This document shows positions 20,996-58,402 of a DNA stretch of 64,000 nucleotides, one piece after another. This DNA comes from Candidatus Saccharimonadales bacterium. GTDB taxonomy: Bacteria; Patescibacteriota; Saccharimonadia; Saccharimonadales; UBA10212. Made by a program: the position numbers and the translations under genes. A model generated the notes under the pieces. That model was not told the DNA's origin. It worked only from the letters and a program-made list of their open reading frames with translations, and ran no database searches. The DNA is taken from positions 145,691 through 209,690 of the forward strand of contig DASTHW010000014.1 in NCBI GenBank assembly GCA_035717985.1. Reading direction: 5' to 3'. How positions within the stretch are numbered: position 1 is the first letter of the stretch; each line of letters begins with the position of its first letter.

Positions 20996-22261
20996 ATGCG
21001 GGACTGGCTAGGCACCTTTATTGGCAAATCCGTTAGGCTGGGGCTGGTTTTTAGGCGCGGCGGCGGGCAGGCCCTGCCGGGATTAGTTGTTGAAAGACTT
21101 TTGCCTGGCTACGTTCCGTCACTGCTAGCCAAACTACCGGAAGGCGTAGTCATAATCACCGGTACCAACGGCAAGACCACCACCACTAAAATGGTGGTCG
21201 AAATCTTAAGGGCCAACGGCAAGCGAGTTCTCACTAACTCCACCGGCAGTAATCTGGTCCGCGGCATTGCCTCGTCTTTAGCCCGTAATGCCTCGTGGCG
21301 TGGCAATTTAGATTTTGACATTGCCGTTTTAGAAGTAGACGAAGCCACGGCCCGGCTTTTAAGCCAAGCAGTTCACCCGCGCTGGGCGGCGGCCCTTAAC
21401 GTCAGCCGCGACCAGCTGGACCGCTTTGGCGAGGTGGATACTATCGCCAGGTACATTTCCGACACCTTAAAACAGGCCACCGAAGGCGTGGTTGTCAATG
21501 CCGGCGACCCGCTGTTGTCAGCCACCGCTGGAGTACTGGCTAAAAGCCTGGCGGTAGTTTACTTTAGCGCTGGTTCAAAGCTAGCTAAATATTTCCCCAG
21601 CGATTTTGAGCTGGGCGCCGTCAAAAGATCGGCTAAGACTAAAACATCTGCAAAAGCCGAGGTAGAGCTAGCTGATTTTGATGGCCAAACTGTTAAATTC
21701 CGGATAGGCGGTCGGCTCTACCAGGCTGAACTTAAAACATCGGGTCAGCATAATTACCTAAACGGCGCGGCGGCGCTAGCGCTATGCCGGCATTTACTGC
21801 CGGATGTGCCGGCTGAAAATCTAGTCAGCCAGCTAGCAGAAGTGCCGCTGGCCTTCGGCCGCGGTGAAAGATACCGGCTAGCCGGCGGCGAGGTAGAACT
21901 GGTACTGGTTAAGAATCCGGCCAGTTTTACGCAGGCGCTGGCTTCTTACGGCTCGGCCGGCGGCCGGTTTATGATTGCTATCAACGATAATATTGCCGAC
22001 GGCCGGGATGTCTCCTGGCTGTGGGATGTTAATTTCCAGCCGCTTGGCCGCCGCAAGGTAGACATTACCAGCGGTACCCGGGCGGCCGATATGGCCCTGC
22101 GCTTAAGTTATGACGGTACTGTGGTTGGTGCGGTGGAGCCAAATCTGGCGGCGGCAGTCCGGCTGTTTAGCGCCGAGCCTGGGCGCAAAATCATCCTGGC
22201 TACCTATACGGCAATGCTCAGCCTTTATCAACTGCTCAACAAACAGGGTGAAAAAATATGA
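20996..22261 (+). CDS. murT: lipid II isoglutaminyl synthase subunit MurT (Mur ligase family)
   Basis: 421 aa with GTNGKTTT and a DUF1727-type C-terminus (DGRDVSWLWDVNF). It overlaps the following gatD by 4 nt. Confidence 0.85.
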   Translation: MRDWLGTFIGKSVRLGLVFRRGGGQALPGLVVERLLPGYVPSLLAKLPEGVVIITGTNGKTTTTKMVVEILRANGKRVLTNSTGSNLVRGIASSLARNASWRGNLDFDIAVLEVDEATARLLSQAVHPRWAAALNVSRDQLDRFGEVDTIARYISDTLKQATEGVVVNAGDPLLSATAGVLAKSLAVVYFSAGSKLAKYFPSDFELGAVKRSAKTKTSAKAEVELADFDGQTVKFRIGGRLYQAELKTSGQHNYLNGAAALALCRHLLPDVPAENLVSQLAEVPLAFGRGERYRLAGGEVELVLVKNPASFTQALASYGSAGGRFMIAINDNIADGRDVSWLWDVNFQPLGRRKVDITSGTRAADMALRLSYDGTVVGAVEPNLAAAVRLFSAEPGRKIILATYTAMLSLYQLLNKQGEKI

Positions 22262-22971
22262 CCAAACTCAATATCCTGCACCTTTACCCCAATGAGCTAA
22301 ATACTTACGGCGACCACGGCAATGCCTTGACTCTAGTGCGCAGAATCAGCTGGCACGGGCTAGAGCCGGTTGTCCACCATCACCATCCGGGCGCCAAACT
22401 GCCGGCTAAGATTGATTTAGTGATTGGCGGCGGTGGCCAGGATTCAGCTCAAGCCGATGTGCAGGCCGATATTTTAAAGATTGGCGGCCGTCTGCATAAA
22501 ATGGCTGACACCGGCACCCCCATGCTGTTAATCTGCGGCACTTACCAGCTGTTTGGCCACCGCTATGTTACATCTGAAGGCCAAGAGGTAAAAGGCATCG
22601 GCATTTTTGACGCCGAGACATATGGTGCCAAAAAACGGATGATTGGCAATGTCATGGTAGATTCGCACTTTGGCCGTCTGTTTGGCTTTGAGAATCATAG
22701 CGGCCAGACCTTTTTGGGCGCCGGCCAGGCACCGCTGGGCCGCGTTTTGCGCGGCGGCGGCAACAACGGCAAGGATAAAACTGAAGGCGCCCGCACGGTC
22801 AACGTCTTTGGTACTTATATGCACGGGCCGGTGTTACCCAACAATCCGCTATTTTGCGATGAGCTGATTAAAATTGCCGCGCTCAAGCGCTTTGGCCACT
22901 TTTCGCTAAAAAGCGTTGACGATTCGCTAGCCCAAGTGGCCCGCGACAGCGCTCGCCACCGCAAATACTAA
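22258..22971 (+). CDS. gatD: lipid II isoglutaminyl synthase glutaminase subunit GatD
   Basis: 237 aa with a GATase1/CobQ-like fold, the N-terminus LNILHLYPNELNTYGDHGN, a nucleophile Cys in LLICGTYQLFG, and YMHGP. Confidence 0.85.
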   Translation: MTKLNILHLYPNELNTYGDHGNALTLVRRISWHGLEPVVHHHHPGAKLPAKIDLVIGGGGQDSAQADVQADILKIGGRLHKMADTGTPMLLICGTYQLFGHRYVTSEGQEVKGIGIFDAETYGAKKRMIGNVMVDSHFGRLFGFENHSGQTFLGAGQAPLGRVLRGGGNNGKDKTEGARTVNVFGTYMHGPVLPNNPLFCDELIKIAALKRFGHFSLKSVDDSLAQVARDSARHRKY

Positions 22972-28367: not shown

Positions 28368-28498
28368 GCGTCTTTTGCTTTTCCGCTTGTCTTATTCCTC
28401 AAGACAAGCGGGTCCCTAGATTACGCTGGACCATAAGCGGTATGTACTGGCTCGCTTGGTTAGTATATGATTGCTCATAAAGTAACAAGGTGGATGCA

Positions 28499-29722
28499 AT
28501 GCAGGAAGAATTAAATCAGGGTGAGCAAGTTCAGCCAGGCGCCGAGCCAGCTAAAAGTCAACCTAGTGCCGGCGGGCCGGAGCCTAAGTTAAGCGCTTTT
28601 TCGGGCCTATCCGGCAATGAAATGTTCTGCGTAGATTTAATAGGCTATAAACCCGGCAATCTGCTGGTGGGTAACAGCATATTTTCAATGGGCGTGCTGG
28701 GCGGCCTAAAAAGCCTAGGCAGGGGTTTTATTGGCGGCGAAGTAAAATCCTTCACCGAGATGATAGCTGAGGGCCGGCGCCTGTCTTTTGAGCGTCTAGC
28801 CGGCGAAATGGAGTCAAATAATGCTCACGGCGTCAGCGGTGTGGGTAGTGAGCTGGTCTTTCACGGCACCAACGCCGAATTTTTATCAATCGGCTCGGCA
28901 CTGCACGCCAAAAACCAGGCCTCCGGCCAGGCATTTACCTCTTCATCTGACGGCCAGGAGCTATTTTGTCAGGTAGACGTCGGCTATGAGCCGAAGTCTT
29001 TTGTTTTTGGCAATGTGGCTTACTCTATTGGTGTTAGCCGGGGCATAACCGGTGCCTTTAAAAAGCTGGTTAAAGGCGAGGTCCGCCAGTACACCGAGAT
29101 TTTTACCAGCACCAGGAATCTAGCCCTGCAGAGGATAACCGACGAAGCCAAAGCGGCCGGTGCCAACGCCGTAGTCGGCATTAGAACCAGCATTTTGCCT
29201 TACGGTACCACTGGCGTGCAGGAAATGGTAATGATAGGTACCGCCTCGACTCACGCCCTGGCAGATCATGCCCGCCCCGGCGGCGTAATTACCAGCGACT
29301 TAACAGCTGAAGAAATGTGGAACGTAGCCAAAATGGGCTACATGCCTCAACAGCTGGTGATTGGTACATCGGTTTACTCGGTTGGGTTTGTGGGCGGCTT
29401 TAAGTCCTTCCTGCGCGGGTTTGTGAAGGGAGAGATTACCGAAATGACTCAGCTGATTTACGGTGCCCGCGAAGAATCACTAAAGAAGGTCCAAGCCCAG
29501 GCCGACGAGCTGGGGGCCGACGACGTGCTGGGTCTGCGCACCTATATTTATAGTCTTGGCGGCGGGCTGATTGAATTTTTGGTGATTGGCACGGCTGTTA
29601 AAAAAGTTGAAGGTATTAAAACTCGGTCTGAGCAGTTACCGCCGCAGGCTATCATCCGCGACAAAGATACCTTTGTAAACCGGGTGGTCTACGGCGTAGA
29701 TTTAAACATGCAGGGCGCCTAA
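28499..29722 (+). CDS. protein made of three tandem YbjQ/UPF0145 (DUF74)-like repeats
   Basis: Three ~105-aa repeats each read (F/M)xxxxxGYxP...G.S.(F/Y)S.G...G...(F/L)..GE(V/I)...T......R......(L/I)...A...GA(N/D)(A/D)V(V/L)G(I/L)R. ATG 28499 follows an AAGGTGG SD; GTG 28490 is an alternative start. Confidence 0.8.
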   Translation: MQEELNQGEQVQPGAEPAKSQPSAGGPEPKLSAFSGLSGNEMFCVDLIGYKPGNLLVGNSIFSMGVLGGLKSLGRGFIGGEVKSFTEMIAEGRRLSFERLAGEMESNNAHGVSGVGSELVFHGTNAEFLSIGSALHAKNQASGQAFTSSSDGQELFCQVDVGYEPKSFVFGNVAYSIGVSRGITGAFKKLVKGEVRQYTEIFTSTRNLALQRITDEAKAAGANAVVGIRTSILPYGTTGVQEMVMIGTASTHALADHARPGGVITSDLTAEEMWNVAKMGYMPQQLVIGTSVYSVGFVGGFKSFLRGFVKGEITEMTQLIYGAREESLKKVQAQADELGADDVLGLRTYIYSLGGGLIEFLVIGTAVKKVEGIKTRSEQLPPQAIIRDKDTFVNRVVYGVDLNMQGA

Positions 29723-43868: not shown

Positions 43869-44282
43869 GTGCCAACTATTAACCAACTAGTCCGAAAATC
43901 TAGAAAAAGCACATCCGGCAAAAGTAAAAGCCCGGCTCTACTTCGAGTGACCAATAATCTAAAGACAAAAAGCTATGAGCGGCCTAGCCCGTTTAAGCGC
44001 GGTGTTTGTGTGCGTGTAACCACTAAAACTCCTAAGAAACCTAACTCGGCTTTGCGCAAAGTGGCCCGCGTGCGCCTGACAAACGGCCATGAAGTCTGGG
44101 CCTACATTGGCGGCGAGGGCCATAATCTGCAGGAACACGCCGTCGTGCTAGTGCGCGGCGGTCGGGTTAAGGATTTGCCTGGCGTGCGTTACCACATAGT
44201 CCGCGGCTCGTTAGACCTGCAAGGTGTGCAGAACCGCAAGCAGGGCCGCAGTAAATACGGCTCTAAGAAAGAGGGCAAGTAA
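43869..44282 (+). CDS. rpsL: 30S ribosomal protein S12
   Basis: [13 protein letters not shown]...[19 protein letters not shown] start behind an AGGAG SD. Confidence 0.96.
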
Positions 44283-44479
44283 TGAGTGGCGAAGCTATTT
44301 CATCAGAGACAGCCATGCCGGAAACGGGCAGAGGCGAACACATAGATTCCTTAGTGCGGCGCTGGAAAGCTGGTGAAGCACACACGATGACGGGCGAGGA
44401 AGTTGACGAATTGGATAATGCCATTGAACTCGGTCTTGTTACACAGGAAGAATTAATGGAGAGGCCCGATGCCGCGTAA
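44282..44479 (+). CDS. ORFan (65 aa) intercalated between rpsL and rpsG
   Basis: The ATG overlaps the rpsL stop (TAATG) behind AAAGAGGG. Its stop lies 11 nt inside rpsG. Acidic, no known domain. Confidence 0.5.
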
Positions 44480-44951: not shown

Positions 44952-45275
44952 ATGGAAGCTATAGATACGAAACTGGCCAATTTAGTTTATATGCCCGAAG
45001 GCGTTTGTTCGGCCGATTGTCCTTTGGCGCATGGCCATAGGGCTAATCCTGACTTTCTTCAAGTCTCGGTCGACGGTGGGGAAGAACTCCCGACCGGGAT
45101 TACCGTAAGCTCATTCAATGGCCGCTTGCGGACTACTGAAATACGGATACCCGGTGCCCTGCGCGCGAGTGGAGTAACTGAAATGTTAAACAAGCCAACA
45201 GGCGATGCCGTTGATGACGGGCATCTGGCCTGCAATGCGCTCTGTGCACTAGCCGCGGCCAGAAGGGGTGAGTAG
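44952..45275 (+). CDS. ORFan (107 aa, two CxxxC motifs) intercalated between rpsG and fusA
   Basis: The ATG lies 3 nt after the rpsG stop, behind AGGAG. Its TAG stop overlaps the fusA GTG (TAGTG). It carries C19xxxC23xxxHxH and H91xxC94xxxC98. Confidence 0.55.
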
Positions 45276-47362
45276 TGGCAGAGAAAAAATACGCACTCGA
45301 GCATGTTAGAAATATCGGTATCATTGCCCACATTGACGCTGGTAAAACCACCACCACCGAAGGCATTCTTTACCGCACCGGTTTGAAGCACAAGATTGGC
45401 GAAGTGCACGCCGGCGAGGCCACAACCGACTGGATGGCCCAGGAAAAAGAGCGGGGTATTACTATTACCGCCGCCGCCGTGACCTGTTTTTGGAAAGACC
45501 GCAAGATAAACATTATCGATACGCCCGGCCACATCGACTTCACGGTTGAGGTGGAGCGGAGCCTGCGCGTGCTAGACGGCGCGGTAACCGTTTTTGACGG
45601 CAAGATGGGCGTGGAGTCTCAATCAGAGACCGTCTGGCGCCAAGCCGACAAATACGGCGTGCCCAGAATTTGTTTTATCAATAAGATCAACCAGACCGGC
45701 GGCGATTTTTATAAATCGCTGGAGTCTATCCACCACCGCTTAAATAAGCGGGCTTTCCCGATCCATCTGCCAATTGGCTTTGAGCAGTCCGTTAAGGGCA
45801 TAGTCGACCTGATTGATATGAAGGCCTATACCTATAACGAGTACACCGACCACGAGCTAAAGGTAGGTGAAATCCCTTCTGATATGGCCGATTCTGTTAG
45901 AAAATACCGCTCGCTTTTGATTGAAAACGCCGTCGCCGAAGACGAGCAAATGCTGGAAAAGTATTTTGAAGTTGGCGAAGAAGGCTTAAGCGAAGATGAC
46001 ATTAAAAAAGCTATCCGCTCAGCCGTACTATCGGGAAATTTCTTTGCCGTCACCGGTGGTGATGGCCGCGGCGTGATTGTTGAGAAACTTCTAGACGCGA
46101 TTGCCGATTTTCTGCCTAGTCCGATTGACCGCGGTTCCACCTGGGGCACTAACCCCAAAAGCGGTGACGAGCTGGAGCGAAAACCTGAGGAATCAGAGCC
46201 ATTTTCAGCTTTGGCCTTTAAGATTGCCACTGATCCGTTTGTCGGCAAGCTAGCTTTTTTTAGAGTTTATTCAGGTAAGGTAACGGCCGGGAGCTATATC
46301 TTGAACAGTTCTACCGGCGAGAAAGAGCGCGTCGGCCGGATTGTGCGGATGCACTCTAATGACCGGACTGATGTTACTGAAGTCGGCGCCGGCGACATTG
46401 CCGCCATTGTGGGCCTTAAAGGCACTACTACCGGCAATACGCTTTGTGACCCCGCGAGCCCCATTTTGCTAGAAAGTATTACTTTCCCAGAGCCGCCGGT
46501 GTCTATCGCTATTGAGCCTAAAACTAAGGCCGACCAGGAAAAAATGAGCCTGGCGCTGGGCCGCCTAGCAGAAGAAGACCCGACCTTCCGCATCCGGGTG
46601 GACCACGAGACCGGCCAGACAATCATCTCTGGTATGGGTGAGCTTCACCTTGAAATTATTGTCGATAGAATGAAGCGGGAGTTCACAGTGGAGGCTAACG
46701 TAGGCCAGCCGCAGGTAGCCTACCGGGAGACCATCCGTAAAGACGGCGTCGAGGCCGAGGGTAAATTTATACGCCAGTCCGGTGGCCGCGGCCAGTACGG
46801 CCATGTTTGGCTAAGATTATCTCAAAATGAGGCCGGCAAGGGCTTTGAGTTTATCAACAGCATCAAAGGCGGCGTGGTACCCAGCGAATATATCCCCGCT
46901 ATCCGTAGTGGTATTGAAGAAGCTATGAGTAATGGTGTGCTGGCCGGCTACCCGGTTGTCGATATCCGGGCAGAGCTTTATGACGGCTCTTTCCATGAAG
47001 TTGACTCCTCTGAAATGGCCTTTAAAATTGCCGGCTCTATGGCCCTCCAAGAAGGCGTCAAAAAGGCCGCGCCGGTGCTGATGGAACCAATTATGAAAGT
47101 TGTCGTCGTGACACCGGAAGATTTTATGGGTGATGTAATCGGCGACCTTAATGCTAAGCGCGGCCGAGTTGAATCAATGGATGACCTGCAAAACTCAGTT
47201 AAGCAAATTACAGCCTTTGTGCCCTTAGGCGAAATGTTTGGCTATACCACTAACCTGCGTTCAATGACTCAAGGTCGAGCCTCAAGCTCGATGGAGCTAG
47301 ACCACTACGCCGATGTGCCGGGTAATGTAGCCCAAGAAATCATAGCTAAATCCGGCAAGTAA
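45275..47362 (+). CDS. fusA: elongation factor G
   Basis: 695 aa with [20 protein letters not shown] and NKINQ, and all five EF-G domains. GTG start behind GGGGTGAG. Confidence 0.97.
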
Positions 47363-47367
47363 GCTCT

Positions 47368-47808
47368 ATGTCCACCGAAAATAGCGGCAGTAGATTGGAT
47401 GAAATCTACTTCCTTAAAACTGAGGACGCCGCTGATCTTAGCTCGGCTAATCCGTTAGCTCGGTGGCGCGCCTTTGATCATTTGCCTGACTCACTTTCGC
47501 CGGCTGATATTGGTTATATTGCTCAGCACGTTCACCGAACACACTATTACGCCGGTGAGCGCCGAATCCGTGCCTACCAACGCCGGGCTATAAAATCAAT
47601 CGGCGACCTGTCTCTTTCAAGGACCTTGCAGAGCGAGGAGTCTGCCCCGGTAGCCGATATTGCTACAGCCGCCAGTGCGGCCGCTTGGCTGGAGCGAGGC
47701 TCACTTTTATCTAGATTTTATGCCAGACGCCTGAGGGCTAAAATCGAGACCGAAATTGTTGATTTTTCGGCCAAGCTAGATTCACCCCAAGGCCAAGAAA
47801 GCTTATAG
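47368..47808 (+). CDS. ORFan (146 aa) directly after fusA
   Basis: The ATG lies 5 nt after the fusA stop. There is no competing frame, no clear SD and no known domain. Confidence 0.5.
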   Translation: MSTENSGSRLDEIYFLKTEDAADLSSANPLARWRAFDHLPDSLSPADIGYIAQHVHRTHYYAGERRIRAYQRRAIKSIGDLSLSRTLQSEESAPVADIATAASAAAWLERGSLLSRFYARRLRAKIETEIVDFSAKLDSPQGQESL

Positions 47809-47856
47809 CTAAAATTCTTACTGCTCACGCGTCTAAGCGCTAACTATAATCGGCTC

Positions 47857-49386
47857 GTGAGGAGACGAATCTTAAGGCCTATCAGACCTATTTTTATTGG
47901 CGCCGGCTTTAAGGGCGTGACTCCGTCTATGGCTCTTCGCTCGGTTACTAGTAAAAACGGTATGGGCGTTTTTGCCAGCTCGGATCATCTATATAAAAAC
48001 GCCGTTTTTGGCCGCGATTCACTGGAAGTGGCCGAAGATTTAATGCCCATTCGCCGAAAACTAGTCGAGCGGATACTGCTGACTTTGGCTAGTCTGCAGG
48101 GTGAGACGCTAAACGAGGATAATGAAGAAGAACCCGGCAAAATTATTCATGAGTATCGCTCTAGCCGGATTGACGGTAAGCCGATAGACGATCACTCGGC
48201 AGAAATTCTGCGCCGGCTGAGCGAGCGCTGGGGTGGCACCACCAGCCAGCTGGCCTACTACGGTTCGGTAGACTCTACGCCGCTATTTTTGAGGGCTGTT
48301 TATTGGTACTGCACGCTTTACGGCAAGACCATTTTAGATAAGCGGGTTCAGTTACTCAGCGGTCACATCCAGACTTTTTCTAATGTGGTTGATAATGCCG
48401 CTGATTGGCTAGTTAACAAGATTAGCGAGAGTAAAAGCGGCTTGATTGAATACCACCGCCTGAACCCCAAAGGCATTGAAAATCAGGTCTGGAAAGATAG
48501 CAATGAATTTTACGTACATACTAACGGCCGTCCGGCCAACCATGCCGGCCCAATTGCCTCTGTTGAGGTTCAGGGGCTAGCTTACGATGCCCTGCTGGCC
48601 GCCGCCAAAATGCTAGACCATAGAGCCGATGAGTTAAATGCTTTAGCCGCTCAGCTCAGAACCCGGACGCTTGAGCTCTTATGGATTCCCCAGCTCGACT
48701 ATTTTGCTTTAGGGGCCGACTACGACCAAGATGGGCGCGTAAGACTAATTGAGACTATTACTGCAAACCCGGCTGAACTACTGGATACTACCTTTTTCGG
48801 TGGTATGCCTAGCGAGCAGGCTCAACGGATGATTAGTGGGATTGCCCACCGCATACTTGGTCCCGAGTTTTTAACTGACGCCGGCGTCAGAAGTCGCTCA
48901 TTATATGAGGCGAATCTAGTCTCCTTCTGGGATTATCACGGCAGTTACACCTCTTGGCCTAAAGAAACTTATGATATTGCCAAAGGCTTTAAGCGTCAGG
49001 GCCTGCCACGCCTGGCTTATGAGCTGGAGAATCGCCTGCTTAATATGACTCGGGCCATGAAGTCCTTCCCTGAATTTGTCTATGTAGACCTGCGCGGCCG
49101 GGTAATGGGCATGCCAAACCGCCGTACCAGCCACGGCCAGCTAGTCTTTGTCGATAGTAAAAATAAGCCCGAAAAAGTCCAGGCCTGGACGGTCTCGGCT
49201 ATTACGGCCATTAACGCCGCCAAACGGCCCAGAAAATTTAAAACTAGCGATAGCTGGCAGGCCAAACTTGAAAGCGAGATGCTAGCCGACATTCCACACA
49301 TGCCAAAACTTAAAACTCAAAAAGAACTTTCTGCCCGCTATCCAGCCTACCCCTATAAATTGATTGATAATCAGCTAGTCCAGTAA
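47857..49386 (+). CDS. amylo-alpha-1,6-glucosidase / glycogen-debranching-enzyme C-terminal-domain-like six-hairpin glycosidase
   Basis: 509 aa with GDE_C-type motifs (VFGRDSL, PGKIIHEY, QVWKDSN). The start is GTG 47857 (6 nt after TATAAT) or ATG 47929. Confidence 0.7.
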   Translation: MRRRILRPIRPIFIGAGFKGVTPSMALRSVTSKNGMGVFASSDHLYKNAVFGRDSLEVAEDLMPIRRKLVERILLTLASLQGETLNEDNEEEPGKIIHEYRSSRIDGKPIDDHSAEILRRLSERWGGTTSQLAYYGSVDSTPLFLRAVYWYCTLYGKTILDKRVQLLSGHIQTFSNVVDNAADWLVNKISESKSGLIEYHRLNPKGIENQVWKDSNEFYVHTNGRPANHAGPIASVEVQGLAYDALLAAAKMLDHRADELNALAAQLRTRTLELLWIPQLDYFALGADYDQDGRVRLIETITANPAELLDTTFFGGMPSEQAQRMISGIAHRILGPEFLTDAGVRSRSLYEANLVSFWDYHGSYTSWPKETYDIAKGFKRQGLPRLAYELENRLLNMTRAMKSFPEFVYVDLRGRVMGMPNRRTSHGQLVFVDSKNKPEKVQAWTVSAITAINAAKRPRKFKTSDSWQAKLESEMLADIPHMPKLKTQKELSARYPAYPYKLIDNQLVQ

Positions 49387-49472
49387 GATTTTGGCGGCGA
49401 AGATTAGCCTAATTAAAAGCGATTATTCTTACAGCCTCACCTTCGTATAGCTAATAGACTAGAGGCACATTC

Positions 49473-50621
49473 ATGAGAGTAGCAATTGTGGCTGACCCAT
49501 ATGTACCCATACCGCCTACCGGATACGGCGGCATAGAAAAGATAATTTATTATCTTATCCAGGGGTTGATGGAGCAGGGCCATGAGCCAATTTTGATAGG
49601 CCCGGGGGATTCAAGGGTGCCATGTGAGCTTTTGCCTACCTGCCCAAGAGCCGAGTTCTTTCCTAGTGACACAGCAAAACTGCCGGCTTTTGAAGCTAAG
49701 GTTAGAGATATTAAAAAGCGGAGCAGGAACATCATTCGAGAGATTTTGCCGCGGGTAGATATTATCCATTCGCACGGTTTTGATTTGTCTAGCTTTAGGG
49801 ACTATCCAAACCTAACTACCTTACATGGTCCGATTAATCTGCATCAGTTAAAGTACTATCATTCCGATATCAGAAAGAGTCTTTATTATGTAGCTATTTC
49901 TAAAAATCAGGCGGCGGCCCTGCCTAGCCTGCAGTATGTCGGTATCGTTTATAACGGTGAAGACCCCAAAGAATTTCCAATTATCCAAAACCCTGATAAT
50001 TACGTTTGTTTTGTTGGCCGCTTTGACCGCGAAAAGAACCCGCATCTGGCCATCGAGCTGGCGCTGAGCCTGGATATGAAGATAAAGTTAGCGGGTAAAG
50101 TAGATTTTCAGGGCCGCGACTATTTTGATCAGGAGATTAAAAAATATCTTGACCATCCGCTAGTTGAATACTTGGGTGTTTTGCCGCCGGAAGACAGCGC
50201 CAAGCTTATGGCGCACGCCCGCTGCAACCTTCATCCTACCGGATTTCGTGAGCCTTTTGGGCTGACGATTTTGGAGGCCGCCTATGCCGGCACGCCGACG
50301 TTGGCTATTGCCCGCGGCGCTCCGCCAGAGATTATCGAGGACGGCCGAACAGGTGTGCTGGTAGAGGACTTTGTCGAGGGGCATCATTTGCTTAACGATT
50401 GTTTTGAGATGGACCGTGCCTACATTGCCGCTCGCGCCCGCGCTCTATTTAATTATCAGGTCATGACCAAGCAGTACATCAGAGCCTATCAGAAAGTCAT
50501 CGGCCTGATGGGGATAAAGCGGGCTCAGCGTAGCAGACTGCAGAATTTAACCGCTAAAACAATTCGAGAACTGCGTCATATTTGGGAAGATTCGGTCGGG
50601 CCGCCGGATTCTAACGATTAA
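49473..50621 (+). CDS. GT-B glycosyltransferase, family 4-like
   Basis: 382 aa with the N-terminal GGIEK motif and a C-terminal E-x7-E region (EPFGLTILEAAYAGTP...GRTGVLVED). Confidence 0.88.
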   Translation: MRVAIVADPYVPIPPTGYGGIEKIIYYLIQGLMEQGHEPILIGPGDSRVPCELLPTCPRAEFFPSDTAKLPAFEAKVRDIKKRSRNIIREILPRVDIIHSHGFDLSSFRDYPNLTTLHGPINLHQLKYYHSDIRKSLYYVAISKNQAAALPSLQYVGIVYNGEDPKEFPIIQNPDNYVCFVGRFDREKNPHLAIELALSLDMKIKLAGKVDFQGRDYFDQEIKKYLDHPLVEYLGVLPPEDSAKLMAHARCNLHPTGFREPFGLTILEAAYAGTPTLAIARGAPPEIIEDGRTGVLVEDFVEGHHLLNDCFEMDRAYIAARARALFNYQVMTKQYIRAYQKVIGLMGIKRAQRSRLQNLTAKTIRELRHIWEDSVGPPDSND

Positions 50622-50684
50622 AGCTAAAGCCCTAGACTAAAAAATAATTGCTAAATCATCAAAATAAGTCTTATATATATTCTG

Positions 50685-51632
50685 ATGAGAGGTGAGGAGA
50701 AAACAGCTTTTGGCTTTCCAGGTCAAGGAGCGGATTATTCGGAGCTGGTCCGGGACTTAACCGACGAGAACATTGTAGGTCAGGAAACGGCCGATATTGC
50801 CAATGAGGTTATTGGTGAGGTTAGTGACGCCTCGGAAGTAGATGTTTTAAAGCTGGCTCGAGAGGGCACTGAAGACGAGCGGGTCGACACCAGAAACGCC
50901 CAAATTATTCTACTAGCCGGCGGTGCCGCCGGGGCGGCCTACTTAATGAAGAAGCGAAAGATTAACCCAGATTTCGTGCGGGGCCATAGTGCGGCCGCTT
51001 TTACGGCGGCGGCCGTCGGCGGCGCTTTAGCTTTACGTCAAGCCGCCATTGCTATCAAGGAACGGGGCATTTCGATGCATGAAGCGTCCATTGAACATCC
51101 AGGTGGGATGGCCGCCGTTAAAGACATCTCTTTAGAGAGACTAGATACCATCTGCCAAAACGTCGGAGCTTTTATCTCTAATTTAAATTCACCTATTCAA
51201 ACCATTATCGCCGGACCGCACGAGGCGCTGGAGGAAGCCAAGAAGAAAATTACTCAGGCTGGCGGCAAAGCTACGCTTTTCCGTAATTGGAAAGCCGGAA
51301 TTGCTCATACACCCCATGTAATGGTGGTCCAGGAGAGGTTAAATGAGATCCTGGGACCCAATATCGTCAGCGACTCAACAATTGCGGTAGTTAAAAACAG
51401 AGATGGTAAAGCCACCAAAGAGGCTGAGCAAATCCGCCAAGACTTAACCGCCGCCGCCGAACAGGTCAGATGGGCCGCCGGCACCGAGACTCTAGATGAG
51501 GAAGGCGTAGTCCGGCATATAGAGGTCAGCTCTAAAAGCAAGAGGGTTATATCCAATCTGCTGAAGGAGCATGACCTGAGAGAAGGCGTCGAGATTGAAC
51601 ATATCAGCGAATTAATGGACGAGGAGAAATAA
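50685..51632 (+). CDS. divergent FabD-like acyltransferase (malonyl-CoA:ACP transacylase fold)
   Basis: 315 aa with FPGQGADY (canonical GQGSQ), GHSAAAF (canonical GHSLGE), ERGISM and AHTPHVM. It appears to have its own promoter with the ATG close to the -10 box. Confidence 0.75.
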   Translation: MRGEEKTAFGFPGQGADYSELVRDLTDENIVGQETADIANEVIGEVSDASEVDVLKLAREGTEDERVDTRNAQIILLAGGAAGAAYLMKKRKINPDFVRGHSAAAFTAAAVGGALALRQAAIAIKERGISMHEASIEHPGGMAAVKDISLERLDTICQNVGAFISNLNSPIQTIIAGPHEALEEAKKKITQAGGKATLFRNWKAGIAHTPHVMVVQERLNEILGPNIVSDSTIAVVKNRDGKATKEAEQIRQDLTAAAEQVRWAAGTETLDEEGVVRHIEVSSKSKRVISNLLKEHDLREGVEIEHISELMDEEK

Positions 51633-51636
51633 ACCC

Positions 51637-52638
51637 ATGAGTGAAATACCTATTATAATTGCCAGAAATCCCGGCCAGGGTTCACAGTATCAGGGCATGG
51701 GCGAGGTGGCGGGGGACTGCGCCTGGGCTCAGTATACTTTTGACGAGGCCACCGAAATATTAGCTAAAGATAACCGGCTGTACGAGGGTAGCCGTATTGA
51801 TATCCGTTGGCTGGTAACTGAAGCCGACGACGAAACGCTCGCTCAAAACCATCTAACTCAACTGGCCATTTTTGCTTCTACCATAGCCGCCCAACGGCGG
51901 CTGAGTGTCGAACAACCGGATATGGGAGCCGACATTTGGGCCGGCCACAGCATTGGCGAGTACGCCGGTTTAGTAGATGCTGGCGTTTTAAGTTTTGAAG
52001 AGGCTCTACTACTAGTTGATGCCCGCGCACGCTATATGACCAGCGCCGGAGATCTAGCCAGGGCAAAGGGTCAGGAAGGCGGCATTGGTGTAGTGATTGG
52101 CGATCCGGAGGCTGTCGAGAGATCGGCTGGTAAAAACGACGTTTATATTGCCAACTACAACAATCCTAAGCAGACTGGCGTATCTGGCGCTAAAGACGAT
52201 CTAGCCGGCGTTAAAGAGGAGTTTGGCAGTCGATATATAGAGATTCCGGTCAGCGAGGCGGTGCACTCTCCGTTTATGTCCTGGGCGGAATATAAGCTAC
52301 GAAATTACATCGGTGACGGCCACGACTTCAAAGATCCGGCTCCGGAAACTGTGGTTCTAAATTACACCGGCCGCTTTGCCGAGTCCGGACAGGAAATAGC
52401 TCAGAACGCGCCTATGCAGGTTACCAATCCCGTTATGTGGCTCCCCGGCATGGAGCTGGCACTGATTGACTACGTAGATCATGATAATGCTCCCCCGGTT
52501 ATACTGCTCGAAGTGGGCGCTAAAATGGTCTTAAGCGGTATAGATAAACACTTCGCGCGTAGCTATCCAAACGTTAAGATTGTCACTTTTGAGCAGGCTA
52601 TTAAGACCGGTCTAGACCCCGAAAGCCTAGCGGCTTAA
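51637..52638 (+). CDS. FabD-like acyltransferase (malonyl-CoA:ACP transacylase family)
   Basis: 333 aa with PGQGSQYQGMG, the GHSIGEYAGLV nucleophile elbow, an Arg in DARARYM and VHSPFM. The start lies 4 nt after the previous stop. Confidence 0.8.
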   Translation: MSEIPIIIARNPGQGSQYQGMGEVAGDCAWAQYTFDEATEILAKDNRLYEGSRIDIRWLVTEADDETLAQNHLTQLAIFASTIAAQRRLSVEQPDMGADIWAGHSIGEYAGLVDAGVLSFEEALLLVDARARYMTSAGDLARAKGQEGGIGVVIGDPEAVERSAGKNDVYIANYNNPKQTGVSGAKDDLAGVKEEFGSRYIEIPVSEAVHSPFMSWAEYKLRNYIGDGHDFKDPAPETVVLNYTGRFAESGQEIAQNAPMQVTNPVMWLPGMELALIDYVDHDNAPPVILLEVGAKMVLSGIDKHFARSYPNVKIVTFEQAIKTGLDPESLAA

Positions 52639-52819
52639 GCCGCCCCCCTTAACTAACCCTTGGCTAAGGTATTTACAATATAAGCGTTTTTCACTATACT
52701 TACGGGGTAATTTGCGCGTGAGTGGCTATTGCTGTTATGCGCTAAAATCATTATTTAATTTAAGACTAACCGGCTGGCGGTTACTAGAGTGACCCAGGCG
52801 GTGATAGAGGAGACAATAA

Positions 52820-54004
52820 ATGGCAGAATCCTTCGACCGAAGCAAGCCGCACGTCAACGTTGGGACCATGGGTCATGTCGACCACGGTAAGACCACTTTA
52901 ACCGCGGCTATCACCACGGTGCTAGCGAAGCGCCTACCATCGGCAGTTAACAAGCCGATAGCTTATGATCAGATCGATAACGCGCCGGAAGAAAAACAGC
53001 GCGGTATCACCATCGCTACTTCACACCAGGAATACGAGAGCGAAAAGCGCCACTACGCCCACGTAGACATGCCCGGCCACGCCGACTACATTAAGAACAT
53101 GATTACCGGTGCCGCCCAGATTGACGGTGCTATTTTGGTGGTCAGCGCCGCTGACGGCCCTATGCCCCAGACCCGCGAGCATGTACTTCTGGCTAAGCAA
53201 GTCGGGGTCCCCTCTATCTTAGTTTTTCTAAACAAGATGGACCTGGCTGACCCGGAGCTGGTTGAACTAGTCGAGGAAGACGTCCGCGACCTACTGGCAA
53301 AGCACGATTTTGACCGCGAAGCCCCCATTATCAAGGGTTCTGCCACCAAGGCTCTAGACGGCGACAAAGAAGCTGAAGATGCCATCATGGAGCTAGTCAA
53401 AGCCATGGACGACTACATTCCTGAACCAAAGCGTGAGCTAGATAAGCCGTTCATGATGGCCATTGAAGACGTTTTCTCCATCAAGGGCCGTGGCACCGTG
53501 GCTACTGGCCGCATCGAAACCGGCATAGTTAAGGTTAACGACGAAGTTGAAATTGTTGGTATCCGTCCCACTACCAAGAGTGTGGTTACCGGCGTGGAAA
53601 TGTTTAAGAAGAACCTAGACCAGGGCCAAGCCGGCGACAACGTTGGTATTCTGCTCCGCGGTATCGAGCGCGACGACATCGAGCGCGGTCAGGTGCTAGC
53701 CAAGCCCGGCACCATTACTCCGCACACCGAATTTGACGCCGAAGTCTATATCCTAAACAAGGAAGAGGGCGGCCGTCACACCCCGTTCTTTAAGGGCTAT
53801 AAGCCGCAGTTCTACTTCCGCACCACAGACGTAACCGGCGAGGTAGAACTACCGGCCGACAAAGAAATGGTCATGCCTGGCGACACCGTCACCTTTAAGG
53901 TAAAACTACTGGCCCCGATCGCCATGGAGCAGGGCTTGCGCTTTGCTATCCGCGAAGGCGGACGCACCGTCGGCGCTGGAGTTGTTACCAAAATCAACAA
54001 GTAA
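52820..54004 (+). CDS. tuf: elongation factor Tu
   Basis: 394 aa with [18 protein letters not shown] and NKMD. It has a GAGGAG SD and a TTTACA-17-TATACT promoter about 130 nt upstream. Confidence 0.97.
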
Positions 54005-54005
54005 G

Positions 54006-54287
54006 ATGATTCACAGTAGAGAAGGTCACCCTATTTCGCCAGAAGCCCTGAGCGCTAACAGAGCCAGAGTTGGCTACGTTATGGAAAAATGGGGTCGCCT
54101 TCGTGAGTATTATCAACCAGAAGTTGATGGTTTGAGCAGTCCGAATGTGCACTTGCGTGAAGCCGTCACGCCGGTTACGGCCACAGCCGTAATAAGGGAC
54201 ATTAACTCGAAATATGGAGTCTTTTTCCTTCGCGACAGTGAAGTTGCGCATAAGCTGGTGAGGTCACAGGAACAGGTAGAGCTTTAA
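54006..54287 (+). CDS. ORFan (93 aa) intercalated between tuf and rpsJ
   Basis: The ATG lies 1 nt after the tuf stop. Its TAA overlaps the rpsJ ATG (TAATG). No known domain and a weak SD. Confidence 0.5.
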
Positions 54288-54622
54288 TGGCAGAGTCTAA
54301 AAAAACTGAACCGGAGATTAAGCAGAGGATCCGTATCCGCTTGAAGGCCTATGACCATAAGGTCATTGATCAAAGTGCCAAGCAGATTGTTGATACGGCT
54401 ATTCGCACCGGCGCCAAAATTGCCGGCCCTATACCGCTACCGACCCGCAAAAGCACCTTCACGGTGGTTAAAAGCCCCCACGTCTACAAAAAAGGCCGCG
54501 AGCAGTTTGAAATGCGTATTCATAAAAGGTTGATTGATATCACCGATCCCACACCCAAGACAGTAGATTCTCTAATGAACTTGTCTCTGCCGGCCGGCTG
54601 CGACGCTGAAATAAAGATGTAA
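54287..54622 (+). CDS. rpsJ: 30S ribosomal protein S10
   Basis: [26 protein letters not shown]...GPIPLPT. Confidence 0.95.
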
Positions 54623-54886: not shown

Positions 54887-55834
54887 CTAATCCACTAGGC
54901 GTCGGTATTCAGCCATAAAATCGGCCGCCGGTCCCTCTTCGTCACTTAGCTTGTCGACGGACTTGGCAATTGCTGAGATGGTAGCAAGTTCAATTTCTCT
55001 ATCTACTAAAGCCTGGTCTAATGCCTCTGCCAGTTCTGCCCGGCTGGGCTCGTCTGCCAGCAGGGCTCTAACGGCTACATCTTTCAGGCCTGGGCTTAAA
55101 ATTACGAAATTGGGGTCAGATCCGGCCAGCATTTCATTAACCGGTTCATCCGGCAGGACCACAGCTGAGCTTTCTAGGTATAAATTATCAATCCGGCGCC
55201 GGAGTTCATCTAAAAATATTGTTTTAGATTTACTACCTCCGGCCGGCGGCTCCATCGGCTCGCCAAAAGCCACTCTAGCCGCCCGCCGCTGGCCGCGTTT
55301 TAGTGGGTTGTCCTGCCCGGAAATCGCCGCCGGTACAGTCGGGGCATTATGCCGGCGAGCAAAGCTGGCGACACCCGGCTTGAAAGGGCCAAGATTAGGC
55401 CGGGGATCAGATTTTCGTAAATTTTTATCGCCGCGGGTTTCTTCCGAAAAAATACCCACGGCTTTGCCCTCAGCCATCGGCCGGTCGACTGCCCGGTAAT
55501 TATCCCCGGAGAAGCCGTGGCGCTTTATTTGAATTACGCCGGTATGTTTAAAGAACCACTGGATAAATGGGTTAGATGAGTAGTCGTCGCGGGCCACCAT
55601 AAGTAAAGCTCTGTCGCGTACCGCAAGAGGAAGTGTTAGGGAGTCCAAGAGGGAGCGGTGATTAGAGGCTACCAAGACGGCTCCTTCACTTGGTATATTT
55701 TCGCGCCCGCTCACCTTAAGGCCCAGGGCCAATTGGGCCAGCGGCTTATATAAGCAGTAAGCGCCCGTATACGTTAGCCGGTTCCGCCGGCTATCCAGCT
55801 CGTTATAGCGCCATAAAATATCAATTCCGCTCAC
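54887..55834 (-). CDS. LPLAT-family acyltransferase with ~100-aa C-terminal extension
   Basis: 315 aa with HxxxxD (NHRSLLD) and an EETRG-like motif. GTG start, tightly following the upstream basic-protein ORF. Confidence 0.8.
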   Translation of the reverse strand: MSGIDILWRYNELDSRRNRLTYTGAYCLYKPLAQLALGLKVSGRENIPSEGAVLVASNHRSLLDSLTLPLAVRDRALLMVARDDYSSNPFIQWFFKHTGVIQIKRHGFSGDNYRAVDRPMAEGKAVGIFSEETRGDKNLRKSDPRPNLGPFKPGVASFARRHNAPTVPAAISGQDNPLKRGQRRAARVAFGEPMEPPAGGSKSKTIFLDELRRRIDNLYLESSAVVLPDEPVNEMLAGSDPNFVILSPGLKDVAVRALLADEPSRAELAEALDQALVDREIELATISAIAKSVDKLSDEEGPAADFMAEYRRLVD

Positions 55835-55836
55835 TT

Positions 55837-56157
55837 TTACCTATTTTTATACTTTAAAAGTGCTACTGGCAAGCTTAAGAGCTTTTGTCTTAATAAACAG
55901 AACTGGCCTTTTAAGCCAGCTCTGCTTTCTTGCTTACTCGCTTGGACTTCAAGAGGTTTTTGCCTTCTTGAGGTTGAGATAGCCCTCCTTCTCAAAAACT
56001 TTTTATAGTTTCTTTGAATTTTTGTGCTAACAGGCTGTAAGCGCGAATTTTGTGCCTTGGCGAGAGTTCTTTCTGCCTTTTGCTTCCGGACGCTTTTGGG
56101 CTTTGAAGCCTCTTCCTTGGCTTTTATAGCGTTTAGGGGCACTTTTGATGACCCCAA
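55837..56157 (-). CDS. possible highly basic K/R-rich protein (106 aa)
   Basis: Only TTG or GTG starts are available. GC is lower than average. No domain, and the composition resembles nucleic-acid-binding tails. Confidence 0.4.
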   Translation of the reverse strand: MGSSKVPLNAIKAKEEASKPKSVRKQKAERTLAKAQNSRLQPVSTKIQRNYKKFLRRRAISTSRRQKPLEVQASKQESRAGLKGQFCLLRQKLLSLPVALLKYKNR

Positions 56158-56278
56158 ACAGCAGGGCTCCAGCTTTTTGGAAGGAGCACCTATTTGGCAA
56201 AATACGCTTAAGCTTAGCTTAAGTCAAGCGATAATGCGACATACCCAGGCCTTAATTTAGCTGTATAATAACTATTCA

Positions 56279-57490
56279 ATGGACTATCAACCGCCGGAAA
56301 AAACCTTGGAGAAATATGCTCAGGTGTTGGTTAACTTCGCACTAGGCGGCGGCACGGGCATTAAAGAGGGCGACGTGGTTTATCTGCAGGGTCCCACCTC
56401 GGCCTTGCCGTTTTATAATGCTCTATCAAAGGTTTTGATTAATTCTGGCGCGATGACTATCGGCGGTCTGGGCGACGATATGCATGGCATGGGCAAGTAC
56501 TATTATGACCACGCCAGCCCCAAGCAGTTGACTACTTTCCTGGATAAATATTATCGGGGCTTGGTAGATCAGACCGATCACCGCATTGCCATAATTGCCG
56601 ACCATGACGTGCACGAGCTAGACGGTGTGGACCCAAAGAAAATGATGACTCGCCAAAAAACGGCTAAGCCGGTTTCAGACTGGTTTAACGCCAAAGAAAA
56701 CGCCGGCAAATATACCTGGACGCTGGCCCTTTACGGCACCCCCAGCATGGCCAAAGAAGCCGGTCTGTCGCTAAAAGCTTATTGGGATCAAATCATCAAG
56801 GCCTGCTACCTGGATAAACCTGATCCGATAGCCGAGTGGAAAAAGACCTCCGCCGAGATTGAGCGGGTAGCGGCTAAGCTGACTAAAATGCAGATAGCTA
56901 AACTGCATATCCACGGTAAAGATATAGACATGCATTACACCTTGGGCAAAAAGCGTAAATGGCTGGGCGGTAGCGGCCGCAATATCCCTAGTTTTGAAGT
57001 GTTTACTTCTCCGGATTGGCGGGGTACAGAGGGCTGGGTGCGCTTTAACCAGCCGTTATATTACTACGGTCCTAAGGTTCAAGATATTGAGTTGACCTTT
57101 AAAGCCGGCCGAGTGGTTAAAGCCACCGCCAGCAAAAATCAGAAATTACTGCGGGAAATGCTGGCGACAGATACCGGCGCCAGCCAAATTGGTGAAATTT
57201 CGCTGACCGACCGGCGCCTAAGTCACATAACCAAATTCATGGCCGAGACCCTTTTTGACGAAAATATGGGCGGTCCCTACGGCAACACCCACCTAGCTGT
57301 CGGCAAATCCTACCATGATACCTATAACGGCGACACCAGTAAGATGACGCCAGCTCTATCTAAAAAGCTTGGTTATAACGAATCGGCTATCCACGTAGAT
57401 ATGATTTCGACTACCGACCGCACGGCTACGGCGACTTTAGCCGACGGCTCCGAAAAAGTGATTTATAAAAAAGGCCAATTTACGGTTTGA
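56279..57490 (+). CDS. M29-family aminopeptidase (AmpS/PepS-like)
   Basis: 403 aa. The N-terminus (LEKYAQVLVNFALGGGTGIKEGDVVYL) and C-terminal metal-site region (HLAVGKSY, AIHVDMI) fit the M29 family. Confidence 0.85.
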   Translation: MDYQPPEKTLEKYAQVLVNFALGGGTGIKEGDVVYLQGPTSALPFYNALSKVLINSGAMTIGGLGDDMHGMGKYYYDHASPKQLTTFLDKYYRGLVDQTDHRIAIIADHDVHELDGVDPKKMMTRQKTAKPVSDWFNAKENAGKYTWTLALYGTPSMAKEAGLSLKAYWDQIIKACYLDKPDPIAEWKKTSAEIERVAAKLTKMQIAKLHIHGKDIDMHYTLGKKRKWLGGSGRNIPSFEVFTSPDWRGTEGWVRFNQPLYYYGPKVQDIELTFKAGRVVKATASKNQKLLREMLATDTGASQIGEISLTDRRLSHITKFMAETLFDENMGGPYGNTHLAVGKSYHDTYNGDTSKMTPALSKKLGYNESAIHVDMISTTDRTATATLADGSEKVIYKKGQFTV

Positions 57491-57787: not shown

Positions 57788-58402
57788 ATGAAAGCTTTAA
57801 TCACCAGAAAAATCGGCATGACCAGCGTGATCGGCGACGATGGCACGGCGGTGCCTATTACCCTGCTTTCAGCCTCTCCCAATACGGTTACAAAGGTCAA
57901 ATCTAACGAGTCTGACGGTTATTCGGCCGTCCAGCTCGGTTTTGAAGAAGATAAAAAGGCCGGCAAGACCAAACAAGGTATCTTTAAGCCGGCCGGCGTT
58001 ATGCCCAAGATTATTCGTGAATTCCGCCTCAAGGATGACGATAGCGAGATAAACGTCGGCGAAAAACTTTCCGCCGACGTTTTTAATATCGGCGAGCTGG
58101 TAGATGTATCCGGCCTTAGTAAGGGCAAGGGCTGGGCCGGCACAATTAAGCGGCACAACTTTCACCGCGGCCGCAAGACCCACGGCGGCCAAAGCTACCG
58201 CCGGCCGGGCTCAATCGGCTCAATGTATCCTCAACACATTTTAAAGGGTAAGAAAATGGCCGGCCGCATGGGCCACGAGCGGGTTACCACTAAGCGTCTG
58301 CGGGTTGAACTGGTTGATACGGATTTAAATGTTATCGGGGTGCGCGGCGCTGTGCCGGGCCCGCGCAAAGGCATAGTTATGATCAGGGAGGCTAAGTCAT
58401 GA
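57788..58402 (+). CDS. rplC: 50S ribosomal protein L3
   Basis: MKALITRKIGMTSV...KGKGWAGTIKRHNF. An AAGGAG SD is present. Confidence 0.96.
   Translation: MKALITRKIGMTSVIGDDGTAVPITLLSASPNTVTKVKSNESDGYSAVQLGFEEDKKAGKTKQGIFKPAGVMPKIIREFRLKDDDSEINVGEKLSADVFNIGELVDVSGLSKGKGWAGTIKRHNFHRGRKTHGGQSYRRPGSIGSMYPQHILKGKKMAGRMGHERVTTKRLRVELVDTDLNVIGVRGAVPGPRKGIVMIREAKS

Follow-up and report, generated by a model that had tools for sequence, protein, structure and literature searches.

The canonical str operon has the gene order rpsL-rpsG-fusA-tufA. The stretch of DNA analysed here, a 64-kb window from contig DASTHW010000014.1, comes from a soil Saccharimonadales metagenome-assembled genome (Saccharibacteria/TM7, candidate phyla radiation [CPR]). 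It keeps rpsL, rpsG, fusA and tuf in that order, with rpsJ after tuf. Unlike in the canonical operon, however, 1.7-5.5 kb of non-translational genes separate fusA and tuf in the window and its relatives, and a conserved promoter and a leader hairpin of its own precede tuf. As obligate episymbionts, Saccharibacteria have tiny genomes, and little is known about their own metabolism. Our analysis concentrates on a glycoside hydrolase (GH) and a GT4-family glycosyltransferase (GT4) encoded between fusA and tuf. We tentatively propose, with slightly less than even confidence, that they form a cytoplasmic pair for synthesis and hydrolysis of an alpha-glucoside, encoded at the str operon's 3′ end, to which acyltransferase (AT) genes were later added.

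The enzymes closest to this pair have been described separately. The GT4 glucosylsucrose synthase TeGSS/alr1000 (PDB 7fg9) is a retaining enzyme that makes alpha-1,2-glucosyl-sucrose from uridine diphosphate (UDP)-glucose, and its residues Y18, R179, K184 and E256 contact UDP and matter for activity (PMC9909042). The TeGSS gene in cyanobacteria adjoins sucrose-phosphate synthase, whereas the GT4 gene here adjoins a glycosidase gene within the str region. On the hydrolase side, CAZy family GH176 was founded on TgAMY of Thermococcus gammatolerans (PDB 7vma, where it carries the title 'archaeal type glycogen debranching enzyme'), whose alpha-1,6 activity is without direct evidence (bioRxiv 10.64898/2026.07.01.735942). 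A second member of that family, Arthrobacter humicola A8F5, acts strictly as an inverting alpha-1,2-glucosidase, a kojibiose hydrolase, and its substrate-binding residues are fully conserved in TgAMY (bioRxiv 10.64898/2026.07.01.735942).

On the plus strand of the window the genes follow in the order rpoC, rpsL, a 65-aa open reading frame (ORF), rpsG, a 107-aa ORF, fusA, ORF146, GH, GT4, AT1, AT2, tuf and rpsJ. The five ORFs that the initial annotation had placed between fusA and tuf were all recovered, including a first one that starts 5 nt past the fusA stop, and its remark that this location is unusual is supported. The features discussed below are the following.

45275-47362, plus strand: fusA (EF-G), a 695-aa ORF and the upstream border of the slot.
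47368-47808, plus strand: ORF146, a small all-helical protein of a narrow clade, 5 nt after the fusA stop.
47857-49386, plus strand: GH, a single-domain GH176-like (alpha/alpha)6 glycoside hydrolase of clan GH-G type and predicted inverting exo-alpha-glucosidase.
49473-50621, plus strand: GT4, a TeGSS-type glycosyltransferase with Pfam domains Glycos_transf_1 and Glyco_transf_4.
50685-51632, plus strand: AT1, a FabD-like acyltransferase (Pfam Acyl_transf_1).
51637-52638, plus strand: AT2, another FabD-like acyltransferase, separated from AT1 by 4 nt.
52672-52700, plus strand: tuf promoter (TTTACA, 17 nt, TATACT; 10/12 in the scan), the downstream border of the slot.
52714-52742, plus strand: conserved hairpin of 7 pairs in the tuf 5′ leader.
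52820-54004, plus strand: tuf (EF-Tu), a 394-aa ORF.

At the protein level, GH shows 100% identity to NCBI VFP35_03535, which is encoded on a 238-kb contig. A profile built from 14 GH orthologues matched a single solved protein, 7vma, at 1.1e-24 and in two stretches (query 48-99 and 130-392). Foldseek was run with an AlphaFold2 (AF2) model of GH, which had a predicted local distance difference test score (pLDDT) of 77 and a predicted template modelling score (pTM) of 0.82. It also returned 7vma first (7.5e-12), followed by GH100 invertases and GH63 and GH37 barrels, all with probability 1.00, and the GH63 matches include glucosylglycerate and mannosylglycerate hydrolases. The profile and fold matches agree with the initial annotation of a six-hairpin glycosidase. 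For its 'GDE_C-like' label, no match to PF06202 (GDE_C/GH133) was obtained at E up to 0.01, and a precomputed PF06202 match is present in 2 of the 120 GH homologues listed. In Pfam, GH gave only a sub-threshold MGH1-like match (8e-4; 19.5 bits versus a cut-off of 27 bits).

The motifs FGRDSL, KIIHEY and WKDSN, which had been noted earlier, are present in the GH translation. With GH176 (TgAMY and A8F5), GH shares the (alpha/alpha)6 barrel, the fixer Asp in FGRD (R53, D54), the subsite +1 His-Glu (H98, E99), the catalytic acid in WKD (W212, D214), and the YH..W platform (Y360, H361, W367). These nine positions, R53 to W367, are invariant in 43/43 sequences, except for E99 with 42/43, and their correspondences were taken from the HMMER alignment to 7vma. 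E406 in PEF and Q442 and W444 in QAW are conserved in 42-43/43 and were assigned to the base and platform by motif position only. The counterparts among the kojibiose-binding and catalytic residues of A8F5 are R286, D287, H335, E336, W425, D427, Y565, H566 and W571 and, by motif, E611/616, Q634 and W636. When the 150 C-terminal residues of GH were searched against PDB sequences, only chance matches were found, and the C-terminal part is unaligned to 7vma.

GH also differs from GH176 in several respects. Identity in the structural alignment is only 21%, there is an extra low-confidence loop (412-436), and a conserved C-terminal tail is present. Because the N-terminal beta-sandwich domain of GH176 is absent (query residue 48 aligns to TgAMY residue 238, and the AF2 model is helical from residue 23), we term GH 'GH176-like' and not a proven member. 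It is predicted to be an inverting exo-alpha-glucosidase. The tail (residues 467-509, window 49255-49386) carries the invariant residues W467, L471, E472, P480, L491, A493, Y495, P496, Y498 and Y500. It includes the string ARYPAYPY, is of low confidence in the AF2 model and is without a counterpart in the aligned part of 7vma.

Both GT-B fold domains of GT4 scored above their Pfam cut-offs (Glycos_transf_1, 2e-21; Glyco_transf_4, 1.2e-11), in line with the initial GT4-like call. Its best PDB match is TeGSS (3.6e-46, 33% identity), with similarity over the full length; the next is a UDP-glucose:tetrahydrobiopterin glucosyltransferase at 7e-16. Y18, R183, K188 and E260 of GT4 are equivalent to Y18, R179, K184 and E256 of TeGSS. 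Since these UDP-contact and catalytic residues are conserved, the two enzymes likely share their donor chemistry. Among the residues of the TeGSS acceptor rim (W10, Y70, E74, Y97, R117, T119, N122 and W254), only E74 is identical in GT4. Scores against the NCBIfam glycogen synthase and lipid glycosyltransferase models were far below the cut-offs.

The locus was then compared across relatives. A GH profile was used to collect 36 species-representative loci from GTDB genomes, and the set was extended by metagenome contigs with GH, AT2 or ORF146 homologues, which gave 43 GH loci and 29 complete slots. The EF-G proteins of related loci are 80-89% identical to the window fusA product and carry Pfam EF-G domains; for the window EF-Tu, identity across loci is 84-93%. 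In 35/43 related Saccharimonadales loci GH occupies the fusA-tuf interval, and the eight loci with GH elsewhere form one clade on the GH tree. GT4 still follows GH in four of these eight, and in the two relocated loci examined (L021 and L022) the GH-GT4 pair adjoins trmD. GT4 adjoins GH in 22/29 complete slots, in either orientation. GH is alone in 7/29 slots, among them the deepest branches, is accompanied by GT4 with no AT in 14/29 (GT4 downstream on the same strand, or upstream on the opposite strand in L011, L019, L026 and L038), and by GT4 and a FabD-like AT in 8/29. The fusA-tuf slot is the ancestral site of GH in the clade.

The initial annotation had treated the slot genes as one inserted block of five, and this did not stand. 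The nearest relatives by rpoC (85-86% identity), L042, L043 and L047, all differ from the window. L042 holds an unrelated 157-aa ORF followed by GH, GT4 and one AT, and L043 holds GH, GT4 and one AT. In L047 (rpoC 85%), fusA is followed by an ORF146 homologue (59%), a different TeGSS-like GT4, a GH13 gene on the opposite strand, one AT and tuf. The L047 GT4 matches 7fg9 at 3.6e-61. Its GH13 protein matches the Halomonas alpha-glucosidase 3wy1 at 9e-121, which points to an exo-alpha-glucosidase. Adjacency is kept for GH and GT4, and the ATs and ORF146 are variable; ORF146 and a second AT were seen in no more than a few near relatives. Because the nearest relatives all differ and the tandem AT pair recurs on only one other contig, we conclude that the slot gained GT4, the AT, the second AT and ORF146 in steps, and that its content is still changing. 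A recent horizontally acquired island was also considered and rejected, given the small difference in G+C content (0.44-0.53 for the block versus 0.53-0.55 for the flanks), and GH being ancestral at the site.

Other genes were seen in the slots of relatives. In L024 the order is fusA, GH, GT4, GH2, AT and tuf, where GH2 denotes a second GH paralogue (26% identical) between GT4 and the AT (L024:12600-14177 and L024:14290-15144). In place of ATs, proteins of 101-119 aa that belong to two small families follow GT4 in L009 (12663-13022), L014 (12643-12987), L025 (12650-12982) and L040 (12610-12948), and also in L010 (12648-12953) and L032 (12679-12999). Unrelated small ORFs are also present in slots, namely those of L042 (157 aa), L017 (171 aa), L037 (117 aa) and L038 (196 aa). 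A Pfam search of the small ORFs after GT4 or fusA in relatives gave nothing significant, and none is similar to acyl carrier protein (ACP). L007 (DATIIZ010000012.1, 'Candidatus Babeliales bacterium') and L012 (DATIHJ010000019.1, 'Patescibacteria group bacterium') both have the Saccharimonadales-type fusA-GH-tuf arrangement and rpoC 75-83% identical to that of the window, and their record labels look imprecise or wrong.

Transcription signals separate the slot from tuf. The tuf promoter and the hairpin in its leader were studied in alignments of 29-31 loci. The motif TT[TG]ACA, 16-19 nt, TA..[AC]T was present in 31/31 loci, some 100 nt upstream of tuf, with a background of 0.06 per kb. In the window it reads TTTACA (52672-52677) and TATACT (52695-52700), and in relatives the second hexamer is TATAAT or TATACT with a spacing of 17-18 nt. 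Elsewhere the motif was found in 1/33 fusA-to-GH, 0/25 GH-to-GT4 and 0/28 rpoC-to-rpsL intergenic regions. A promoter ahead of tuf, one of three suggested initially, is therefore borne out. For the one suggested ahead of GH, a TATAAT is present (47845-47850), but the site fails the consensus scan and has the cross-locus record just given. The one ahead of AT1 likewise has its hexamers (TTGCTA at 50648, 19 nt, TATATA at 50673-50678) and fails the consensus scan; no conserved counterpart was found, although the cross-locus scan covered the fusA-to-GH and GH-to-GT4 regions and not GT4-to-AT1. A generic consensus scan returned 11 promoter-like sites versus 11.6 expected by chance, and terminator-like sites were not in excess either. 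No plus-strand terminator-like hairpin was found between rpsL and rpsJ in a scan of 43.5-55 kb.

Because the promoter motif stands upstream in 31/31 loci, we read tuf as its own transcription unit, with the cargo genes upstream at the tail of the fusA gene string. Since no conserved promoter precedes GH or GT4, these genes are probably read through from the str operon. The leader hairpin of tuf has 7 bp with compensatory changes in 5/7 pairs, and 91% of its cells were paired compared with 24-63% in slid controls. The leader gave no match to Rfam at E up to 1, and a search of the window against Rfam returned nothing except one tRNA. This hairpin could represent a cis-regulatory or stabilising element, so far undescribed, in the EF-Tu mRNA of Saccharimonadales.

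We take GH and GT4 to serve one function because hydrolysis of alpha-1,2-glucosides is the sole activity with rigorous characterisation in the family closest to GH and the family closest to GT4 makes such glucosides, because the pair stays adjacent through inversion and relocation, and because L047 swaps the GH176-like enzyme for a GH13 alpha-glucosidase and keeps a TeGSS-like GT4 and an AT. The replacement of one alpha-glucosidase by another in L047 argues for function and against chance. In the mechanism that we propose, the cargo slot would extend from the fusA stop to the tuf promoter, where the gene string rpoBC-rpsL-rpsG-fusA has its 3′ end. GT4, as a retaining TeGSS-type enzyme, would take glucose from UDP-glucose and attach it to a soluble acceptor as an alpha-glucosyl residue, among linkages most likely alpha-1,2, and GH, as a single-domain inverting exo-alpha-glucosidase, would remove this residue again. 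The pair would make a small alpha-glucoside, or a compound resembling a kojioligosaccharide, and mobilise it again, and this compound could serve as a compatible solute or carbon reserve. Both genes would be read through from the str operon, and their expression would track the translation machinery. In the subclade of the window, one FabD-type AT would have been added after GT4, and two in the window itself, with a carrier protein or the glucoside as the putative acceptor. We regard alpha-glucoside turnover in general as rather probable; the alpha-1,2 linkage specifically is possible, with our judgement leaning somewhat against it.

Several observations weigh against this proposal. Seven complete slots, deepest branches included, have GH but no GT4, and because of these GH may act on imported or host-derived glucosides, possibly its original role. 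The predicted linkage draws on one preprint (that of A8F5) and on identities of 21-33%, and the founder of GH176 was first reported as an alpha-1,6 debranching enzyme. Besides the missing beta-sandwich domain, the catalytic base and QAW of GH were mapped by motif alone, and the C-terminal alignment failed. In GT4, 7/8 residues of the acceptor rim are changed relative to TeGSS (W10Y, Y70L, Y97F, R117P, T119N, N122Q and W254F), so sucrose need not be the acceptor. Co-transcription of the pair with the str operon is probable from the absence of motifs only. Finally, no AT was seen without an adjacent GT4 in the loci set, but this association falls short of significance (Fisher p = 0.07), and phylogenetically the loci are not independent.

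The two ATs were called FabD-like initially, and Acyl_transf_1 matches (2.3e-16 for AT1 and 5.4e-22 for AT2) confirm this. Along their entire length, both can be aligned with structures of FabD and of trans-AT enzymes, and the two kinds of alignment concur. AT1 matches a PDB FabD at 9e-26, the best PDB match of AT2 is the trans-AT DisD (2.5e-23), and the fold-level sequence matches of the ATs to E. coli FabD (1mla) and DisD (3sbm) range from 1e-16 to 1e-26. The motifs PGQG, GHS, KERG and AHT were found in AT1, and PGQG, GHSIGE, ARAR and VHS in AT2. PGQG, GHSxG and the Arg117 and His201 equivalents are common to the ATs and to FabD and DisD, and equivalents of FabD Gln11, Ser92 (in GHSxG), Arg117 and His201 are present in both ATs. 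In E. coli FabD, Arg117 binds the malonyl carboxylate. Since they keep the catalytic Ser and His, the Gln of the oxyanion hole and the Arg that binds the carboxylate, AT1 and AT2 are likely active malonyl- or dicarboxyl-acyl transferases. FabD-type enzymes load carrier proteins, and we know of no example in which one acylates sugars.

Unlike FabD, the ATs reach only half of the equivalog cut-off (TIGR00128 fabD: 130.4 bits for AT1 and 129.6 bits for AT2 versus a curated cut-off of 260.9), and they are extremely divergent between close species. Slot ATs are 20-30% identical between species in which GH is 55-73% and EF-G 80-89% identical; despite this, the motifs are kept in all 10 slot ATs with a recovered N-terminus. 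Of the two, AT1 is the best-scoring counterpart of the one AT present in relatives (24-28% identity), with its top scores against those of L002 and L007, and it is 21% identical to AT2. The closest relative of AT2 is P0122 (59%), followed by a Poribacteria FabD at 36%. The only other tandem pair was on contig L045, where a 59%-identical AT2 homologue has a very divergent FabD-like ORF upstream with a 1-nt gap. Taken together, the ATs are probably under unusual evolutionary pressure. They are also unlike FabD in being present as two tandem copies beside sugar enzymes, in a lineage, Patescibacteria, that is reported to be without fatty-acid synthesis (PMC12455944). An ACP search with an E. coli probe found none in 812 kb of window and loci, a weak test in that the same region was searched repeatedly. 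No fatty-acid synthesis genes are present in the 64-kb window, the part of the genome covered.

These data also bear on readings that differ from a glucoside turnover pair. One is that the slot holds housekeeping genes placed there by chance, with GH as an amylo-alpha-1,6-glucosidase, GT4 as a glycogen or alpha-glucan synthase and the ATs as true FabD. Existing names agree with this: GH homologues are labelled 'glycogen debranching enzyme' by the Joint Genome Institute (JGI), 7vma was deposited as an amylo-alpha-1,6-glucosidase, AT2 is named 'ACP S-malonyltransferase' by NCBI, and both ATs keep the FabD catalytic residues. We nevertheless consider this reading improbable. The scores of GT4 were 30 bits with the glgA_Coryne model, whose cut-off is 302, and 16.6 bits with glgA, and its nearest solved relatives use small soluble acceptors. 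TgAMY, whose alpha-1,6 activity lacks direct evidence, has an active site equal to that of the alpha-1,2-glucosidase. The ATs, at ~130 bits, fall well short of the fabD cut-off, and their identity of 20-30% next to an EF-G of 80-89% is unlike that of a housekeeping FabD. The lack of a detected ACP, within the limits given above, and the reported lack of fatty-acid synthesis in the lineage point the same way. We give a similarly low probability to a glycolipid or acylated-glycan module, in which GT4 would glycosylate a lipid or build a glycan, the ATs would acylate it and GH would trim it; the initial annotation had raised this link as speculation. A GH-GT4-AT combination does recur with non-orthologous members (GT4, GH13 and AT in L047; GH, GT4, second GH and AT in L024), and every AT seen had an adjacent GT4. 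In addition, weak NCBIfam matches connect GT4 to GlcNAc-phosphatidylglycerol synthase and the L047 GT4 to diacylglycerol glucosyltransferases, and PlsC-like acyltransferases are encoded nearby (54887-55834 and 8819-9460). However, the lipid-glycosyltransferase matches are far under their cut-offs (35 bits versus 480), the best GT4 relatives take sucrose or tetrahydrobiopterin and not lipids as acceptors, and in the majority of loci GH and GT4 are present but no AT. Sugar acylation by a FabD-type enzyme would, moreover, be without a known example, and the conserved Arg indicates a malonyl-type and not a fatty acyl substrate.

It is also conceivable, though unlikely in our view, that the slot is simply permissive and that its genes share no function, in which case adjacency would say little, at least for the ATs and ORF146. 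The differing cargo of L042, L043 and L047, the unrelated small ORFs of L042, L017, L037 and L038, the non-homologous small ORFs at other str and S10 junctions (45 singletons) and the non-significant association of AT with GT4 are all consistent with tolerated insertions. Against this, GH and GT4 are found together after inversion and relocation, the hydrolase is replaced by another alpha-glucosidase and not by a random gene, and the same three enzyme classes recur. For the glucoside turnover pair, we also considered a more specific variant, in which a growth-coupled cycle of a rare alpha-1,2-glucoside (kojioligosaccharide- or sucroglucan-like), operated within the str operon, is combined in one subclade with fast-evolving FabD-type enzymes that have been repurposed for acylation of a non-ACP acceptor, such as that glucoside. 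We judge this variant very improbable; if it were true, the FabD fold would gain a new type of reaction with such acylation (e.g. malonylation), and the product would be a new class of anionic solute.

ORF146 was initially described as an ORFan, and it is nearly so. An exhaustive HMMER scan of 1.84 billion representative proteins found three relatives, with 60%, 58% (partial) and 37% identity, and in L047 the homologue lies directly after fusA. There was no match in Pfam, NCBIfam or PHROGs. The AF2 model, from a 3-sequence alignment, is helical (pLDDT 84; pTM 0.77) and matched no PDB fold at E below 0.3. ORF146 shows no similarity to the 157-aa ORF at the same position in L042. We conclude that ORF146 is a real gene of a narrow clade that accompanies fusA rather than GH.

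Other gene junctions of the region also hold small ORFs. In the window these are at 44282-44479 (65 aa, rpsL-rpsG gap) and 44952-45275 (107 aa, rpsG-fusA gap), and many loci (L002-L047) have small ORFs in the rpsL-rpsG, rpsG-fusA and tuf-rpsJ gaps. Among 49 such junction ORFs, 45 were singletons (blastp, E up to 1e-3), with no Pfam or PHROGs match; variable spacers, or small genes that evolve very fast, could account for them. The S10 operon of the window is interrupted (54887-57490) between rpsJ (54287-54622) and rplC (57788-58402) by a PlsC-like acyltransferase encoded on the minus strand (315 aa, of which ~140 are extra at the C-terminus) and by an M29 aminopeptidase. At the same position, L043 has an M29 peptidase, and L004 and L005 have NUDIX genes. 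Elsewhere in the window are a second PlsC-like acyltransferase (8819-9460, minus strand), a MurT/GatD peptidoglycan-amidation pair (20996-22971, plus strand) and a 410-aa protein with three YbjQ_1 repeats (28490-29722, plus strand).

The component enzymes belong to or adjoin known families (GH176-like, TeGSS-type GT4 and the FabD superfamily). Our literature searches found no description of a glucoside pair that has long resided in the fusA-tuf gap of a CPR lineage, of a pairing of GH176-like and TeGSS-type enzymes, from two recently defined alpha-1,2 families, or of fast-evolving FabD-like genes attached to such a pair. The locus offers a natural test of the newly defined alpha-1,2-glucosidase activity of GH176, beside the only known soluble alpha-1,2-glucosyltransferase family, and the enzyme predictions are open to cheap and simple assays. 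For work on transcription in uncultured CPR bacteria, the tuf promoter and leader hairpin would be usable landmarks. The presence of FabD-like enzymes also prompts one to ask which role a malonyl transferase plays in a lineage reported to be without fatty-acid synthesis. To our knowledge, nobody has looked for a small glucoside in Saccharibacteria. A pair of enzymes that makes and breaks a sugar, kept for so long at the tail of a translation-factor operon, would point to a physiologically important small glucoside in these bacteria, which may serve in stress protection or as a carbon reserve.

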